A stretch of DNA of 64,000 bases from assembly GCA_965248535.1 (NCBI GenBank), contig CBDFJR010000002.1, forward strand, positions 832,001-896,000, written 5' to 3'. Below the pieces are notes generated by a model. It made no database searches. It was not told the origin of the DNA and saw nothing but the letters and a program-made list of their open reading frames with translations. Origin of the DNA: Phormidesmis sp. Its GTDB lineage: Bacteria; Cyanobacteriota; Cyanobacteriia; Leptolyngbyales; Leptolyngbyaceae. The first letter of the stretch is position 1. Each line of letters begins with the position of its first letter. Both the position numbers and the translations under genes were made by a program. Below are positions 1,120 through 20,302 of this stretch, piece by piece.

Positions 1120-1530
1120 ATGACGGTGTTGTCTGAACGAAACGAGCAAAACACTGCAACAATAGTGCCTGTCCAACCTTCGCGAGAGCGAGTCAGACAA
1201 GAGTTGGGGCAAAAGATTCATGCCGCACTCCAGGCTGCTAAAAATCTGTCTCGCGAAGAGGCTTTGACAGCAATCAAAACCAGTCTTCTAGCTATTCAAA
1301 TTGAGTGTCGAACGATCGGCAAGTCTTTCATTTTTATCGAAGAAAGAGTGACCTGTAGCCAGTATGGGTTAAAAGGACGCATTCAAGACAGTGCGACTGT
1401 GTTTAGAGGCCCTAGTGAGAATGCTTCTGTTGCAATTTGTGTCACTGATCGAGGGTCGCTGCTGCATCGTAACGGCGATCGCTGGCAGATCTATAAAGAC
1501 GTTGGAGATGTAAATCCTGTAATTATCTGA
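1120..1530 (+). CDS. Hypothetical protein
   Basis: 136-aa ORF with GGTGAG upstream of ATG; no recognised domain. Confidence 0.6.
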   Translation: MTVLSERNEQNTATIVPVQPSRERVRQELGQKIHAALQAAKNLSREEALTAIKTSLLAIQIECRTIGKSFIFIEERVTCSQYGLKGRIQDSATVFRGPSENASVAICVTDRGSLLHRNGDRWQIYKDVGDVNPVII

Positions 1531-1575
1531 TCTGCACAGCAAAAAATATTGCAACAGAAAGCATTCTTTAATCAG

Positions 1576-2367
1576 CTAGAGCGTCAAGTTATCGGCATAG
1601 ACGAGCCGCGTTGCCGATCGCAACTCAAACAGCATATATTCCTCCATCACACTCCAGAAAAAAGCCCGCAGCGTTTTCTGTCGCATCGCCTCTGGAATGG
1701 TGTATTCAAAAGCTGAATCACAAGACTTGAGCTTTGCCAAATGGTTTTCACACCCACACTCATGCTCTAGAAAGTAACCATAGCGACTCGATATACTGTC
1801 AATCAACCGCCGAAATGGGGACACATAGCCGCCGTGCAAAATGGCATCAAACTTGCGGGCGACCCCTAGATCTTGTTCACTAAAGCGAAACGATCGCACT
1901 TCAAACAAATCTTGACGCTGCAACGGGTTTAGAAATGTCCAGTAAAAAGTAGCCGGGACATCATACCCAAGTTCGTCAAACAAATCGCTAACAATGTTGA
2001 TGAGAGCAATCCGCTCTTCTTGCTGGTCACTGGCGGGCAACTCACTCCGAATCTGCTGCAAATCTGGATAGTTCTCTGGCAAAAAGGCTTCCCCATAGTG
2101 AGCCACAGCTTCCCACGCTAATAGGCTGCTTCCTTCGCGGTAAGCTTCTTTGAGATGGGCAGTGTCTGGGCGTTCTGCGAACAGAATGTGTCCCTGTTGA
2201 TTTTTTGCTAAGAAGACCTGCGCCAGTGCCGTATATACACGCGGCTCTGTCATCCAGGTTCCTTCTCGAATGCGCTGCCAGCTTTCTGGCATAGACGCGA
2301 TCGCGATCGCAGGTTCACCGTTAATCGTGGTTAAGCTCGAACTAGATGGAATTGTTGACGATCGCAT
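1576..2367 (-). CDS. Hypothetical protein with HECGCENH motif
   Basis: 263-aa ORF, AGGAGA RBS upstream, protein-like composition. Confidence 0.7.
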   Translation of the reverse strand: MRSSTIPSSSSLTTINGEPAIAIASMPESWQRIREGTWMTEPRVYTALAQVFLAKNQQGHILFAERPDTAHLKEAYREGSSLLAWEAVAHYGEAFLPENYPDLQQIRSELPASDQQEERIALINIVSDLFDELGYDVPATFYWTFLNPLQRQDLFEVRSFRFSEQDLGVARKFDAILHGGYVSPFRRLIDSISSRYGYFLEHECGCENHLAKLKSCDSAFEYTIPEAMRQKTLRAFFWSVMEEYMLFELRSATRLVYADNLTL

Positions 2368-2667
2368 GACTGGTTTCTCCTTTCGGTAGATCTGTCTTTG
2401 AGTGAGAAGGGTTGAATGGCTTGTTCACTTCGGCTCTCTCTGTTTGACCTAAACATTTAGGCTATTGACTAAAATACACTGAAGTGGACTGAAAAGCTGA
2501 CCAAGTTTAACGTTTAACCCTCTGAAACGGTTTAGGCAACTCGTTTCTTGCTCAAATTTCTGCATTAGCTCTTCATCGCTAGGGCTAATTTTTCTGCTGT
2601 TAGCCCCAATTCCCTAAGGGGCACTCTAGCAGGGAAACTTAATTTGTTACACAGGTTGTGTGGTTTT

Positions 2668-5600
2668 ATGCCTACGTGCAGCCCGATCGCCCCTCTCGGC
2701 TACCAAATCACTGATCAACTCTATGCAGGCTCTCGCACACTCGTTCACCGGGCAGTTCGTGAAGTAGACCAACAACCTGTGGTCATCAAACGCTTAAGAA
2801 ATGAATGCCCCAGCTTTAATGAACTGGTGCAGTTTCGCAATCAATACACCATTGCCAAAAATCTAGACAGTCCGGGGATTGTCAAACCCTGTAGCCTAGA
2901 ACCCTGTGGCAGTGGTTATGCCCTAGTGATGAATGACTTTGGCGGAGTTTCGCTCTCCACTTATGTCAGAGAGCAGACAAACAATAGCAATTCTCGCGGG
3001 CTGCCCCTGGCTGATTTTTTGGCGATCGCGCTGCAACTGTGCGACATTCTCCACGAGCTCTATCAGCAGCGAGTGATTCACAAAGATATCAAACCTGACA
3101 ACATTCTGATCCACTCAGCAACTAAGCAAATTAAACTCATTGACTTTAGCATTGCCTCGTTGTTGCCTAAAGAAACCCCAGAGATCCAAAGTCCAACCGT
3201 TTTAGAAGGAACTCTGGCTTATCTGTCTCCTGAGCAGACCGGGCGCATGAATCGGGGCATTGACTACCGCAGCGACTTTTATTCACTAGGGGTGACCTTC
3301 TACGAACTGTTAACGGGGCAACTCCCCTTTTTGAGCAGCGATCCCCTAGAGCTAATCCACTGTCACATTGCCCAGCATCCTGTCGCTGTTGACCAGATTA
3401 ACCCTGAGATTGCCTCTGCGCTGTCTGCCATTGTCAACAAGCTAATGGCAAAAAATGCTGAAGACCGCTACCAAACTACCTTTGGACTCAAGCACGACCT
3501 GACACGCTGCGGGGAACAATGGCAGCAAACAGGCACGATAGAATTCTTTGACATTGGGCAACGGGATATCTGCGATCGCTTCCTTATCCCCGAAGTGCTC
3601 TACGGGCGTGAGTCAGAGGTGCAGCGGCTGTTAGATGCCTTTGAGCGCGTCAGTCAGGGCAACACCGAAGTCTTGCTGGTGGCAGGCTTTTCGGGGGTTG
3701 GCAAAACGGCTGTTGTCAACGAAGTCCACAAACCCCTGGCCAAAGGCACAGGTCACGCCACCGTGCGCCAGCGTGGTTATTTCATCAAAGGCAAGTTTGA
3801 TCAGTTTCAGCGCAATATCCCTCTGTCGGCGTTTGTGCAGGCTTTTCGAGATCTAGTAGGGCAACTGTTGAGCGAATCTGACGCGCAGTTAGAGCAGTGG
3901 AAAACCAGCATCCTGGCAGCATTAGGCGAAAATGCTCAAGTGATCATAGAGGTGATTCCTGAACTAGAATGCGTTATCGGGTTGCAGCCCCCTGCCCCTG
4001 AGTTGTCTGGGAGTGCGGCTCAAAACCGCTTCGATCGCCTGTTCCAGCAGTTCATTCAAGTGTTTACCACCCCTGCTCACCCGTTGGTGATTTTTATTGA
4101 TGACTTGCAGTGGGCAGATGCCGCCTCACTTAACCTGATGCGATCGCTGATGAGTGAGACAGCCACCCGTTATCTCTTGTTCATCGGAGCCTATCGAGAT
4201 AACGAAGTCACCGGGGCACACCCGCTGATGTTGAGTCTAGCTGAGATGCAGCAGTCAGGGGCAACAGTCACCACCCTAACGCTTGCGCCGCTGCCCCTAG
4301 GGTCTGTCAATCAGTTAGTAGCAGATACCTTAAGCTGTTCGTTAACGCTGGCGCTGCCTCTAACCACGTTGATTGTGGAAAAAACTGGCGGCAATCCGTT
4401 TTTCACGACTCAGTTTCTCAAGGCGTTATATGACGATCGCCTGCTCACGTTTAATAGCAACGAGAACTATTGGGAGTGTGAGATTGTTCAAGTCAGAGCG
4501 CTCACCCTCACCGATGATGTGGTGACCTTTATGGCAACGCAGTTGCAAAAGCTGCCGACTCTGACGCAAGCTGTTCTCAAACTAGCCGCCTGCATGGGCA
4601 ATCAGTTTGACTTGAGCACGCTGGCGATCGTGGCCCAGCAGCCAGAAGCCGAAATCGCTGCAAACCTCTGGAAGGCTCTGCAAGAAGGCTTAGTAATTCC
4701 CCAAAGCACCGTTTATAAGTTTTTTAGCAACTCATTAGAGATCGATGATTTGTGGCCCAATTCAGTAGATAACTTTTCTGTCACCTACCGATTTTTGCAC
4801 GATCGGGTTCAGCAAGCCGCCTATTCTCTGATTCCAGATGACCAAAAACAAGCCACCCACCTAAAAATAGGGCACTTGCTGCGGCAAGAAAGCAGTGAAA
4901 TTCAACGTCAAGAACGAATTTTTGAGATTGTCGGTCATTTCAACTTGGCGCGGGGGCTGATCTGCGATCGCGCAGCCCACTATGAATTAGCCGCGCTGAA
5001 CCTGCAAGCGGGGAGAACTGCCAAAGCGTCTGCTGCTTTTGAGTCGGCACTAATGTTTGTCAATCTCGGCATTCACAGCTTACCCGCCGATAGCTGGCAA
5101 GAACACCCCACTCTAACGTTAGCCCTGCACAATTTAGCAGCCGAAGCCGCCTATTTGTGCAGCCAGTTTGAGCGAATGGAACAGTTAGTAGCGGCGATTT
5201 TGCAGGAGACAACTCAACTGCTCGATCAAGTCAGTGCTTATGAAATTCAGATTCTTGCTTATCTAGCTCAAAGTCAACCCCAGTCTGCTATTGATGTTGC
5301 CCTTGAGGTGCTTCAACAGTTTGACATTCGGTTGCCCAAAACCCCGACTCAGCTTCAAGTATTGTTGGGTCTAGCTAAAACCAAGTTAGTGCTCGGCAAC
5401 AAAAAACCGGGCCAGTTGATCAATCTCCCCACAATGACCGATGCCAACGCCTTAGCCGCGATGCGAATTCTGTCGAGCGCGGCTTCTGCGGCCTATATTT
5501 GTGCTCCGCAGTTGATGCCACTGTTAGTGTTTGAGCGGATTAATTTATCCGTTCGCTATGGCAACACTGCCCTATCGTCGTTTGCCTATGCTTGGTATGG

Positions 5601-17242: not shown

Positions 17243-17406
17243 GGCGTTTTGTTGTGACTGATACAAAAGCTTAAGTCTAGATTCTACCGCACAAGTTATG
17301 GGGTGCGAGGCGGTTGGTCAGAGATGAATGACGTAGCGACGATCGGATTTTGTAGTACAAAAACTCTCACCACTGTACAATTCCAGTGAGTCAGAGAGGA
17401 ACCGCT

Positions 17407-18009
17407 ATGCGATTGGGTAAAGTAGTCAAATCAAATTCCCACTGTGATTATGTGGTGCAGTTGGATGACGAAATGGATTTTATCGATGCTCCTACAGCCG
17501 ATGACTATGGGTTTGGCACCTTCGTCAAGCTCGAAACCGAGGCACGTCACTGGGCGATCGGCATTGTCTATAATTCTCAACTGCTCAACCCGATGTTTAT
17601 GAACATGGGGCCTCGCCTGTCGAGCGAACCCGATCCGCTTTTTACACCAGATTTGATTAACGAAACTCGGACACTCCTCTGGACGGTGCTGGTCGGCTGC
17701 CTGGATCAACACAACGGCGAATCCTATGGTGTGCAGGGCATTCCGCGGGTGGTGGTGCCTGTGAATACGCCTGTGTCTACGATGACTTCGGCAGAGATTC
17801 ATCAGTTTCATCTCAATCAAGAGCGACGATCGCAGTTTTGTTATTACAGTCATCTGCTTCACTGTGGCGGCACCTTTTCAACGCAACTGACCCACCAAGT
17901 CTTGCAAGAGTTGATCGAGTCAAAACTCTTTAAAGATGCCGAAGAACGTGCTCTGATCGTGCTCTGCAAAGAGTTGTCGTGGAAGAACACAATGGGCGCA
18001 ATGCGTTAA
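17407..18009 (+). CDS. Conserved hypothetical protein, HAS-barrel-like
   Basis: MRLGKVVKSNSHCDYVVQ...PTADDYGFGTFVK resembles stand-alone HAS-barrel proteins; ATG at 17407 after AGAGGA. Confidence 0.6.
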   Translation: MRLGKVVKSNSHCDYVVQLDDEMDFIDAPTADDYGFGTFVKLETEARHWAIGIVYNSQLLNPMFMNMGPRLSSEPDPLFTPDLINETRTLLWTVLVGCLDQHNGESYGVQGIPRVVVPVNTPVSTMTSAEIHQFHLNQERRSQFCYYSHLLHCGGTFSTQLTHQVLQELIESKLFKDAEERALIVLCKELSWKNTMGAMR

Positions 18010-18035: not shown

Positions 18036-18084
18036 AAAAAACCCCAGCCGTAAAGCCAGGGTTAATAATCAGGGTGCATCTACC
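18036..18084 (-). ncRNA. nsiR1: NsiR1-like sRNA, copy A
   Basis: GGUAGAUGCACCCUGA 5' end (recalled NsiR1 signature), GC hairpin plus U6, CCCGGA at -35..-30. Confidence 0.7.
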
Positions 18085-18209
18085 ACTCCTCTATTCCCCA
18101 AACCAGGGACACATCCGGGGATTTTTGAGAAAATTTTCTGCGATCGTGCCCTCTCAACTCTGCTTTAATTCTCAATCCCCTGCTTTAATTCTCAACCCCC
18201 TTTAAACAC

Positions 18210-18258
18210 AAAAAACCCCAGCCGTGAAGCCAGGGTTAATAATCAGGGTGCATCTACC
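18210..18258 (-). ncRNA. nsiR1: NsiR1-like sRNA, copy B
   Basis: Same 49 nt as copy A with one loop substitution; CCCGGA at 18288-18293. Confidence 0.7.
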
Positions 18259-18363
18259 ACTCCTCTATTCCCCAAACCAGGGACACATCCGGGGATTTTT
18301 GAGAAAATTTTCTGCGATCGCGCCCTCTCAACTCTGCTTTAATTCTCAACTCCCTTTAGACAC

Positions 18364-18412
18364 AAAAAACCCCAGCCGTAAAGCCAGGGTTAATAATCAG
18401 GGTGCATCTACC
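18364..18412 (-). ncRNA. nsiR1: NsiR1-like sRNA, copy C
   Basis: Identical to copy A; perfect TCCGGA at 18443-18448. Confidence 0.72.
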
Positions 18413-18419
18413 ACTCCTC

Positions 18420-18448
18420 TATTCCTTAAAGGAGAGATATGATCCGGA
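18420..18448 (-). promoter_or_regulatory. DIF1-type promoter (TCCGGA-N18-GAATA)
   Basis: Minus strand TCCGGA tcatatctctcctttaag GAATA gaggagt then GGTAG; TCCGGA lies at -36..-31 of the inferred 5' end. Confidence 0.65.
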
Positions 18449-18487: not shown

Positions 18488-18817
18488 ATGCACTATCCTC
18501 AAACCCCAGACGGGCGCTACTTTGTGGTCAAGGGGAGACTTTGGCGATGCTCTAACCCTGGGTTAAGTGACGCAGCCCGATCGCGGTTCGTCACCGACCT
18601 AATGAGCGCCCGCCGAGCCGTTAGACAGGCCCTACAAAACAGTGATCAAACCACTCTCAAACAAGCCCGCCTTGAGGTGAATGCTGCCAAAGTCGCGCTT
18701 GGTGAACGAGGTGCCGTCTGGTGGACAGATGGCGCACCCGACTTTAACCGCAAGCTCGTCAAAAATACGCCCTATGCAGATTGGTATGGCACGATCGCGT
18801 CAACGTCTACCCTTTGA
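18488..18817 (+). CDS. Conserved hypothetical protein
   Basis: TPDGRYFVVKGRLWR...AKVALGERGAVWW...NTPYADWY; recognised as a widespread small family of unknown function. Confidence 0.75.
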   Translation: MHYPQTPDGRYFVVKGRLWRCSNPGLSDAARSRFVTDLMSARRAVRQALQNSDQTTLKQARLEVNAAKVALGERGAVWWTDGAPDFNRKLVKNTPYADWYGTIASTSTL

Positions 18818-20302
18818 CTGGGGTTTGGGTTGGGTTCTGCCAATCGAGAATGCCGCGTTATAAACCTGTTCGTTTGCCGCCGCCGACTTAAACAAATCGA
18901 CGATCGGGGTTGGATAATCAACACCTAGTTTCACCCCAAAGCGCTGCTCTTCAACGGGTAAGAGCTTCCAGGGTTCATGCACTTTAGACGCGGGCAGATT
19001 GGCCAGTTCAGGAAGCCAATGCTTTACATAGTCGCCTTGCAGATCGTAGTCTTTGGCTTGCTTAGTGATGTTAAAAAACCGAAACCCACGGGCATCGTTG
19101 CCCACCCCGGCCGTGTAGTTCCAGTTTGCCCAATTGCTGCACACGTCATAGTCAATCAGCCGCGACTCAAACCACTCGGCACCCATTTGCCAATTGATGC
19201 CCAAGTTTTTGGTGAGAAAGCTCGCGACATTTTGCCGTCCGCGATTAGACATAAAGCCTGTGGCTGCCAGTTCTCGCATATTGGCATCGACAAGCGGAAA
19301 CCCGGTTTTGCCGTCGCGCCAGAGATTAAACCGCTCCCAGTCTTCTTTCCAGGGCATCGCGACTCCTTGCAGACCCGATCGTCTAAAAATCTGCGTCCCA
19401 TGTTTGGCACAGATAAACCGAAAATAATCGCGCCACAGCAACTCAAAAATCAGCCAATAAGTCGAGTCATTCTTCACTCGCTGAGACTCATAAGCCTGCA
19501 CTTGCTCGTAGATATAGCGGGGTGACAAACACCCCAACGCCAGCCAGGGTGAAAATTTTGACGAATAATCTGCCCCCAGCATTCCATTGCGGGTTTCTTT
19601 ATAGACTTTTAGATGATCGTGTTGCCAAAAATAATCGTTTAGTCGGGCGATCGCTGCCGTTTCTCCGCCTTTAAACGCCATCACCCCACGGGGATCGCAG
19701 ACGGGAGTTTCTAGCCCAAAATCAGACAGGATAGGCATTTCGCCCACTTCTATATCGGGCAGTGATGGGAGCGTCTGCGGAGCGGGAAACGCCTGATAGA
19801 CAGTGGCATCTTTTTCGACTTCTTTGCGAAACCGAGTAAACAGTTCAGGAATCTCTTGAATCTCAAAGGGCAAATCATCGGGATGGTAGAGAGTGTGACC
19901 CCAAGCGGCGATCGCCGGGATTTTCATCTCTTTTAACGCCTGCTCAAGGGCTGTCTCAACGGCCAACTCTTCTGAGGTGGTTTCGCGATAAAACCGCACG
20001 GTTGTGACTCCCAATTCTTGGGCCAGAGCGGGAATGATTGCTTCGGGCAGCCCGCGCCGCAGGATGAGATCGCTCCCGATCGCTCTCAATGATTGCCGCA
20101 GATCAGCAACGCTCTCTAGCAAAAACTGAGCGCGAAATGCCCCTGTTTTAGGAAACCCATGGGGAGTCTCTCCAAATTGTCTAGGGTCAAAACAATAAAC
20201 CGGAATGACATCGCCTCCGGTCTTCAGCGCTTTGATCAGCGGCTCATGGTCATGCGATCGCAGATCGTTGCGATACCAAACTAAAATCCGTGGCTTAGTC
20301 AC
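18800..20302 (-). CDS. cry: Cryptochrome DASH
   Basis: WYRNDLRSHDHE, YKETRNGMLGADYSSKFSPWLA, GFMSNRGRQNVASF, YTAGVGNDAR. Confidence 0.95.
   Translation of the reverse strand: MTKPRILVWYRNDLRSHDHEPLIKALKTGGDVIPVYCFDPRQFGETPHGFPKTGAFRAQFLLESVADLRQSLRAIGSDLILRRGLPEAIIPALAQELGVTTVRFYRETTSEELAVETALEQALKEMKIPAIAAWGHTLYHPDDLPFEIQEIPELFTRFRKEVEKDATVYQAFPAPQTLPSLPDIEVGEMPILSDFGLETPVCDPRGVMAFKGGETAAIARLNDYFWQHDHLKVYKETRNGMLGADYSSKFSPWLALGCLSPRYIYEQVQAYESQRVKNDSTYWLIFELLWRDYFRFICAKHGTQIFRRSGLQGVAMPWKEDWERFNLWRDGKTGFPLVDANMRELAATGFMSNRGRQNVASFLTKNLGINWQMGAEWFESRLIDYDVCSNWANWNYTAGVGNDARGFRFFNITKQAKDYDLQGDYVKHWLPELANLPASKVHEPWKLLPVEEQRFGVKLGVDYPTPIVDLFKSAAANEQVYNAAFSIGRTQPKPQSKGRR

Follow-up and report, generated by a model that had tools for sequence, protein, structure and literature searches.

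Tandem NsiR1 small RNA genes in a very probably non-heterocystous cyanobacterium and their predicted pairing with hetZ' and hetZ leaders

The DNA analyzed here, a 64 kb stretch that we call the window throughout, contains three tandem genes for the small RNA NsiR1, whose invariant 5' seed is predicted to pair with the translation-initiation regions of hetZ' and hetZ. Our preferred reading, to which we assign a probability of roughly 0.6, is that NsiR1 would provide post-transcriptional feedback, most likely repressive, on the synthesis of two sigma factors, sigma-HetZ and HetZ'. Sequence conservation suggests that such a feedback loop is old and predates heterocysts.

A preliminary description of the locus had noted three minus-strand copies of a 49-nt element, each with a hairpin and a U-run, and had taken them for NsiR1; both points were confirmed. 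Copy A lies at 18036-18084 (terminator stem 18040-18063), copy B at 18210-18258 (stem 18214-18237) and copy C, with a length of about 49-50 nt, at 18364-18412 (stem 18368-18391, followed by the U-run), its 5' end being predicted from the sequence at 18413 or 18412. The Rfam covariance model of NsiR1 (RF02399; gathering cut-off 39 bits) scores them at 54.2, 51.0, and 51.0 bits with matches spanning model positions 1-60, and in a covariance-model search of the window these full-model matches were the only Rfam matches. The copies are direct tandem repeats with a unit spacing of 174 and 154 nt, and their sequences, including the invariant 5' seed, are identical but for a single U/C in the hairpin loop. 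Folding predicts for each a nearly unpaired 5' end followed by a 10-pair terminator stem and the U-run, with folding z values of only -1.5 to -1.8, so that the fold by itself is not strong evidence.

Each copy is preceded on the minus strand by its own promoter elements, as had also been described. Copies A and B have a -35 element CCCGGA (18114..18119 and 18288..18293), which differs from TCCGGA by one mismatch at the tolerated first position, and a -10 element GGAA (18094..18097 and 18268..18271) across a 16 nt spacer, while copy C has the canonical TCCGGA of DIF1 or sigma-HetZ type (18443..18448; consensus in the supplement of PMC13342950) with GGAA (18422..18425) 17 nt 3' of the hexamer. 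In the 64 kb window, the combined pattern CCGGA-N17/18-GAATA has 3 occurrences, one ahead of each copy, compared with a mean of 0.18 in shuffled windows, and 3 occurrences were reached in 0 of 100 shuffles. From sequence, we regard it as virtually certain that these are NsiR1 genes, three complete ones, each with a promoter and a terminator of its own. Contigs from three sequencing runs crossed the unique inter-copy spacers in two runs and spanned the whole array in none, and we did not count them as support because these runs are possibly the source of the assembly. A short-peptide reading, based on an AUG within the seed, was rejected, as the third positions of the codons do not vary and the reading frame is lost downstream.

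In Anabaena, promoters of the TCCGGA type are direct targets of the ECF sigma factor HetZ (PMC13342950); it is HetZ that is the direct activator, and not HetR, on which NsiR1 depends according to the preliminary description. The consensus in the supplement of that study is TCCGGA-N16/17-TGNA-N7/9-T with 1-2 mismatches in TCCGGA, and substitutions to G at -13 and to A at -11 are tolerated (PMC13342950); all three window promoters fit it. The nsiR1 array of PCC 7120 lies within a HetZ-dependent ChIP peak; in the hetZ4-201 mutant this peak disappears, yet nsiR1 is listed there as "up" (PMC13342950), which speaks against a simple reading. Among 71 distinct NsiR1 copies gathered without any promoter pattern (tandem near-duplicates included), 66 have TCCGGA at -35 with at most one mismatch, which we refer to as class I, and 69 have the terminator hairpin. 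G at -12 and A at -10 are found together in 63 of the 66 class I copies, whose -10 element is most commonly GGAA (27/66) and otherwise varies through AGAA, AGTA, and GGTA, consistent with the sigma-HetZ consensus. Selection on the DIF1 promoter elements, proposed earlier from the three window copies, is supported by these counts. TCCGGA is also rare in the host genome (152 sites on both strands, compared with 1,400-5,300 for most permuted hexamers and 102 for one other), which makes it more specific as a promoter element. Judged by sequence, the array promoters are very probably sigma-HetZ promoters. Strict sigma-HetZ promoter matches number 15 in the host genome, about three times the permuted-hexamer rate. 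One of them precedes a CheY-like response regulator (host C5:1673840-1674284), whose leader has a word resembling the seed on its sense strand.

The host genome contains three further copies outside the array. Two are class I and pass the Rfam cut-off, one between lgt and cobM (C2:2135040-2135090) and one beside a PHP phosphatase gene (C5:1148229-1148280). The sixth, between gatB and argJ (C5:1045096-1045150; with its promoter box C5:1045058-1045150, corresponding to L006:1463-1555), is below the cut-off and represents what we call class II. The lgt-cobM copy is kept from the host to heterocyst-type genomes (L002:1501-1551, L375, L380). In PCC 7120, the stretch upstream of all4698 (precorrin methylase, cobM) falls within a HetZ ChIP peak at 5603520-5604643, and the region upstream of cobM is where the class I copy lies in the host genome and in G167 and G174, which suggests that PCC 7120 carries an unannotated NsiR1 copy upstream of all4698.

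Class II copies have the same seed as class I and no TCCGGA; instead, they show a GGG-N5-CCC palindrome centered near -36 and an extended -10 element. This palindrome has the structure required for HetR binding and closely resembles the 17-bp inverted repeat of the hetP promoter as given in an excerpt of PMC4192349, but it is placed at about -36 of a small RNA gene with an extended -10, and HetR binding to it is predicted. A strict class II pattern matched in 70 of the 151 genomes scanned, each of them one of the 81 that are hetZ-positive, with a reversed control pattern finding 0; in G001, three matches are class I look-alikes alongside a true one. Of the 11 misses, 5 were re-examined, and in all 5 a class II copy is present whose box is degenerate. 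Class II genes are mostly single-copy, often lie beside gatB, argJ, or ffh, occur in heterocyst-type genomes as well (loci L180-L209), and mostly score under the Rfam cut-off. The GGG-N5-CCC motif is found within 450 nt upstream of hetZ in only 7 of 70 regions. The HetZ ChIP supplements have no gatB or argJ rows, as expected for a non-HetZ promoter, though this is a weak point, and Table S3 of PMC4734099 has a single seed-bearing row and thus no class II entry.

The host is almost surely a non-diazotrophic, non-heterocystous cyanobacterium, as its Leptolyngbya-like appearance had led the preliminary description to expect. A profile search of its 5.03 Mb genome (50% GC, 99.8% complete) found no nifH, nifD, or PfaA/hglE-type synthase over cut-off, with heterocyst-type controls passing. 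In a HetF tree of 28 rows, built from the first 300 residues of this single gene, the host lies outside the Nostocales clade (100/100), in a group (94/91) with genomes of the same family and a genome named as Leptolyngbyaceae. Both hetR and hetF, which it had been suggested to look for, are present. The former belongs to a patX-hetR unit (PatX at 26.4 bits, below its cut-off of 30), and the latter is found at C5:234974-237664, on another contig than the array and with no NsiR1 match nearby, in agreement with the view that the array stands away from hetF. The host also encodes hetZ (633.5 bits, cut-off 550) and hetZ' (608 bits on NF037964, just below the cut-off of 612). A 343-aa ORF following hetZ has no family match and is taken as patU from its position and DIF1 promoter; a sigma-HetZ-type promoter precedes both patU and patX. 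The host has one putative hetP-like gene, identified by a sequence motif. Excerpts of published work state the roles of HetR, HetZ, and PatU in filaments without heterocysts as unresolved (PMC11298460, PMC12669612, PMC7761841) and date a hetZ relative and hetR to around 2.6-2.7 Ga and hetZ/patU to around 2.5 Ga (PMC12669612).

Of 179 genomes in two sets, 108 have NsiR1 over the cut-off, and our searches found a HetZ-family gene in 109 of them and hetR in 106. NsiR1 is thus scored in 108 of 109 genomes with a HetZ-family gene and in 0 of 70 without, a co-occurrence that, given the non-independence of related genomes, is a pattern and not a test. All 108 NsiR1-positive genomes carry hetZ or hetZ', and 70 genomes are without NsiR1, a HetZ-family gene, and hetR alike; the single exception, G085, has a HetZ-family gene and three class II copies below the cut-off. 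Among the 179 genomes, hetR was not found in G005 (65% complete), G043, and G047. The latter two carry NsiR1 and HetZ-family genes, with neither hetR nor patX found: G043 has only a hetZ'-like gene and two class I copies, and G047 is nifD-positive and retains the class II palindrome all the same, a caveat to its reading as a HetR box. A pattern scan found at least 124 NsiR1 loci in entries whose titles include Nodosilinea, Leptolyngbya, Microcoleus vaginatus, Geitlerinema, Spirulina, and Symploca. Reviews describe NsiR1 as heterocyst-restricted (excerpt of PMC6596454), and the preliminary description had seen novelty in a non-heterocystous occurrence. However, NsiR1 outside Nostocales is common and not peculiar to this genome: Table S3 of PMC4734099 listed 38 genomes of which 27 are heterocystous (11 are not) already in 2016, and an NsiR1 homologue is mentioned in Limnospira (part of PMC8400943).

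The most consistent predicted target site lies in the leader of hetZ'. It is a block complementary to seed nucleotides 1-11, separated from the start codon by 2-17 nt, with 12-13 nt the commonest distance, and it is followed by a Shine-Dalgarno-like word in 34 of 55 cases. A pattern fixed on 21 loci (17/21) was found in 29 of 40 held-out loci and in 45 of 3387 host genes, bearing in mind that the held-out genomes share families with the training set and that the background is one genome, the host, with crude ORF calls. Sites at most one edit from the perfect 11-nt complement occur in 9 of 21 training and 26 of 40 held-out loci against 3/3387 in the background. Under either definition, 18 of 19 families have at least one match, and the opposite-strand control gave 0/61. 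In the two commonest site variants, which make up 18 and 12 of the 55 sites tallied, a single U is missing opposite seed A4 or A6, so that one A of the seed bulges out; further variants preserve pairing through G-U wobble. Seed nucleotides 1-11 are paired in 56-60 of 61 hetZ' duplexes, with the exceptions of A4 (32) and A6 (38), and the spacing between site and start codon varies across reading frames. Bulges, wobble variants, and frame-crossing spacing together are the signature expected of RNA pairing and not of a DNA box or peptide. The seed is invariant, so there is no compensatory change to test; a seed variant in G079, considered as such a change, was rejected because it has no promoter and no terminator. 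In the host, the hetZ' site (C5:1757688-1757699, ATG at 1757717) is two edits from perfect with a predicted net pairing of about -6.8 kcal/mol.

The hetZ start found by alignment is a GTG in 59 of the 70 genomes; in 20 of these, an in-frame stop lies within 15 codons upstream, and the start is probably a conserved GTG (Val-Glu-Ala) in most families (loci L045, L210-L278); in family f32, an upstream in-frame ATG may place the hetZ site within the coding region. In the 35 nt ahead of this start, ATCAGGG occurs in 21 of 70 genomes compared with 3/3387 in the background, and either of two complementary blocks in 51/70 compared with 57/3387, both being post hoc patterns picked after the first 30 loci had been seen. 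By predicted pairing, 48 of 70 hetZ leaders fall within the best 5% of the background, compared with 1 of 38 housekeeping control leaders. The real seed reaches z values of -1.84 for held-out hetZ' leaders and -2.39 for hetZ leaders, whereas the most extreme of 40 shuffled seeds reach -1.11 and -1.71; the mean z of shuffled seeds is itself -0.80 since G-rich ribosome-binding sites attract any C-rich seed. The host hetZ site (C2:230194-230206, GTG at 230188) has a predicted net pairing of -11.1 kcal/mol, and the hetZ' and hetZ sites jointly cover the entire invariant seed. A complementary stretch 116 nt upstream of host hetZ recurs only in close kin and was dropped in favor of the site in the ribosome-binding region. 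On this sequence evidence, we consider hetZ' a likely target of NsiR1 and hetZ a reasonably good candidate that we hold less firmly.

Regarding the sign of regulation, folding with the hetZ' site blocked does not open the ribosome-binding region (8 up and 6 down of 55), which favors occlusion over activation; activation by hairpin opening is not supported. The modeling thus makes it fairly probable that NsiR1 pairing represses. In the mechanism that we propose, active sigma-HetZ would transcribe the array and the two dispersed class I copies, as is known for its Anabaena counterpart, and the unpaired 16-nt seed at the 5' end would, as its conservation suggests, pair with the mRNAs that encode these same sigma factors, at their translation-initiation regions. 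Seed nucleotides 1-11 would bind the hetZ' leader, and nucleotides 11-17 plus 1-7 would pair across the ribosome-binding region of hetZ. Pairing would block ribosome loading and lower the output of sigma-HetZ and HetZ', closing a negative feedback. The class II copy, under its HetR-box-like palindrome, would allow HetR to feed the same brake independently and set a basal level or a delay, tandem copies would set the dose, and PatR may serve as a chaperone of NsiR1.

Phenotypes reported for Nostoc stand in opposition to a simple brake on sigma-HetZ: in an excerpt of PMC9045159, overexpression of NsiR1.4 advances differentiation and depletion of NsiR1 delays it. They would fit a lineage in which repression of brakes (alr3234, patU) outweighs that of the sigma factors, and repression of patU, an anti-sigma factor, could reverse the net sign. 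A distinctly less probable alternative to feedback on sigma factor synthesis is therefore that NsiR1 mainly removes brakes, namely patU, hetF, or a hetP-like gene, with a positive net effect on the HetR/HetZ program as in Nostoc and with the hetZ'/hetZ sites being secondary or a switch between sigma paralogues. Validation of hetF and alr3234 as targets (same excerpt) speaks for it, as do patU leaders, which reach the best 5% of the background in 14 of 30 genomes, the host included at 2.3%, and hetF leaders, which do so in 8 of 29. A further point in its favor is that 30 of 30 hetF-bearing loci examined, many outside Nostocales, have an NsiR1 copy that lies antisense to the region upstream of hetF, which makes this copy old too; these loci had been selected by their NsiR1 match. 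Yet the host has no such copy, and its hetF and hetP-like leaders show weak predicted pairing (-10.3, and -7.7 and -12.2 kcal/mol). Moreover, the patU site overlaps the last hetZ codons and the promoter spacer, which confounds its conservation, and the site found most consistently is that of hetZ'. According to the available portion of PMC9045159, hetF is regulated in cis and pairing with alr3234 differs between NsiR1 paralogues, and inactivation of nsiR1.1 in cis changed a hetF reporter little (excerpt of PMC8406250). The described targets thus do not explain the invariance of the seed across the class.

We think it improbable that NsiR1 acts as a protein decoy or sponge, with the seed as a protein-binding motif and copy number as titration capacity. 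A short invariant seed on many paralogues and the enrichment of NsiR1 in the PatR CLIP-seq targetome (excerpt of PMC11797042) would agree with such a role, and some seed 7-mers show a weak sense-strand excess in the last 40 nt before host start codons (e.g., 28 sense to 14 antisense). This word enrichment is, however, without clear signal in the other usable leader bins, and no sense-strand near-copy of the entire seed recurs in host leaders. It is the antisense sites that are conserved before hetZ', with their bulge and wobble variants and the empty opposite-strand control.

The surroundings of the array bear on a further, even less probable alternative, in which the copies would act only locally, as antisense to or terminators for flanking genes, or would be a selfish repeat. 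Convergent with the array is a plus-strand 207-aa ORF (17386..18009) that had been called HAS-barrel-like and for which we found no match in Pfam, NCBIfam, or PHROGs; it is retained with 93-96% identity beside the array in congeneric genomes. A paralogue 69% identical to it at host C5:2620-3240 is followed by a different tandem repeat and no NsiR1. On the other side, a plus-strand 109-aa ORF (18488..18817; no family match), present at the locus in congeneric genomes only, diverges from copy C and begins 76 nt from its start, an arrangement reminiscent of nsiR1.1 at hetF. It is followed on the minus strand by a DASH-family cryptochrome gene (18800..20302; TIGR02765, 617 bits). Six congeneric genomes have NsiR1 at the same locus in 1 to 4 copies, with spacers alike inside each genome and different between genomes, a homogenization that a selfish repeat might also show. 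In more distant genomes of other genera, one or two NsiR1 copies follow the cryptochrome gene, which marks the older anchor of the locus. Tandem expansion thus recurs at different loci in different lineages. Purely local action is hard to reconcile with neighbors that differ from locus to locus (cryDASH, lgt-cobM, PHP phosphatase, hetF, gatB-argJ) while seed, promoter, and terminator persist, or with a distribution that tracks hetZ and not neighboring genes.

These comparisons also revise two earlier proposals on the history of the array. Copy C, the one furthest upstream, does have a different spacer between conserved boxes. Since a spacer of this type also stands at the head of the array in congeneric genomes, copy C is an older paralogue and not a product of recent divergence. 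As to the proposed ancestral circuit, the ancestral state looks like several dispersed copies, while the tandem array is a labile, genus-level expansion. Very unlikely is finally that the array belongs to a desiccation or light-stress regulon under a SigJ-type promoter, a box of this kind having been proposed for copies A and B: GGGAATA is present in 13 of the 66 class I copies, the array comes after a DASH cryptochrome gene, and the Limnospira homologue responded to gamma radiation (excerpt of PMC8400943), but the full box GGGAATACT is found in 0 of the 66, and the -10 variation fits the sigma-HetZ consensus with TCCGGA kept at fixed spacing.

Compared with NsiR1 of Nostoc/Anabaena PCC 7120 (RF02399; PMC9045159, PMC6596454), the window array has the same seed, size, and terminator, a DIF1 promoter for each copy, and an organization in tandem direct repeats, but it has 3 copies where PCC 7120 has 12, does not lie upstream of hetF, and resides in a host outside Nostocales without nif or hglE match. 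The described targets hetF and alr3234 are predicted to pair weakly here, and the conserved predicted pairing is with the leaders of hetZ' and hetZ. The locus therefore belongs to RF02399 but not to the hetF-linked heterocyst array of Nostocales. Likewise, the promoters share the -35 TCCGGA, the 16-17 nt spacer, and the nGnA-type -10 of the sigma-HetZ regulon, whose hetZ-patU, hetZ', and patX-hetR units the host possesses; the published network (PMC13342950) covers a heterocyst former only and includes no RNA feedback on hetZ or hetZ', and its main text has 0 matches to nsiR or sRNA.

In the literature covered, which left aside the target lists of the primary papers (Ionescu 2010, Brenes-Alvarez 2020) that could contain alr0202, we found no description of hetZ or hetZ' as NsiR1 targets or of an NsiR1 copy with a HetR box, and the portion of PMC9045159 covered has 0 matches to hetZ, alr0202, and alr0099. 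If feedback on sigma factor synthesis holds true, pairing with sigma factor mRNAs would explain the invariant 16-nt seed, the co-inheritance with hetZ, and the many copies; it would also add a loop to models of heterocyst patterning and offer a 50-nt reporter that shows at what times, and in which cells of non-heterocystous strains, the ancestral program is running. The Vibrio small RNAs Qrr1-5 are paralogues with a shared seed that repress the mRNA of their own activator under sigma-54/LuxO control and in dependence on Hfq. NsiR1 might by analogy work in the same way, as shared-seed paralogues on their own activator's mRNA, though its sequence is unrelated.

We would give even odds to a wider picture in which the core HetR/sigma-HetZ circuit of nearly all filamentous cyanobacteria has a hitherto missing RNA arm, NsiR1, that dates back as far as the sigma factors. 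Class I copies (under sigma-HetZ) and class II copies (under HetR) would then share one seed whose halves are held invariant by pairing with hetZ' and hetZ. In heterocyst formers, class I would have multiplied at hetF and acquired new targets, unrecognized lgt-cobM and gatB-argJ copies would be present in PCC 7120 and its relatives, and some phages would carry the gene, possibly to damp the host program.

Several minor observations concern further pairing candidates and mobile elements. A target ranking within the host genome alone is headed by two unannotated leaders, at C2:188667-189242 and at 1120-1530 of the window. At 1070-1530 of the window, the leader of an unannotated 136-aa ORF without NCBIfam match holds a near-complement of the seed with a predicted pairing of -26.5 kcal/mol, third genome-wide. 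Of 11 seed matches in viral contigs, 9 come without promoter and terminator and look like chance. An unannotated NsiR1-like stretch at 497-563 of the 38-kb cyanobacterial plasmid NC_019741.1 was the sole match among 72,556 plasmids. Two related tailed-phage contigs (L388:1459-1517 and L392:1460-1517), out of a set of four that also includes L393 and L394, carry, between genes for an endolysin and a long tail-type protein, an NsiR1-like gene that has a -10 box and a terminator of its own, and one of the two scores 41.9 bits, over the cut-off.
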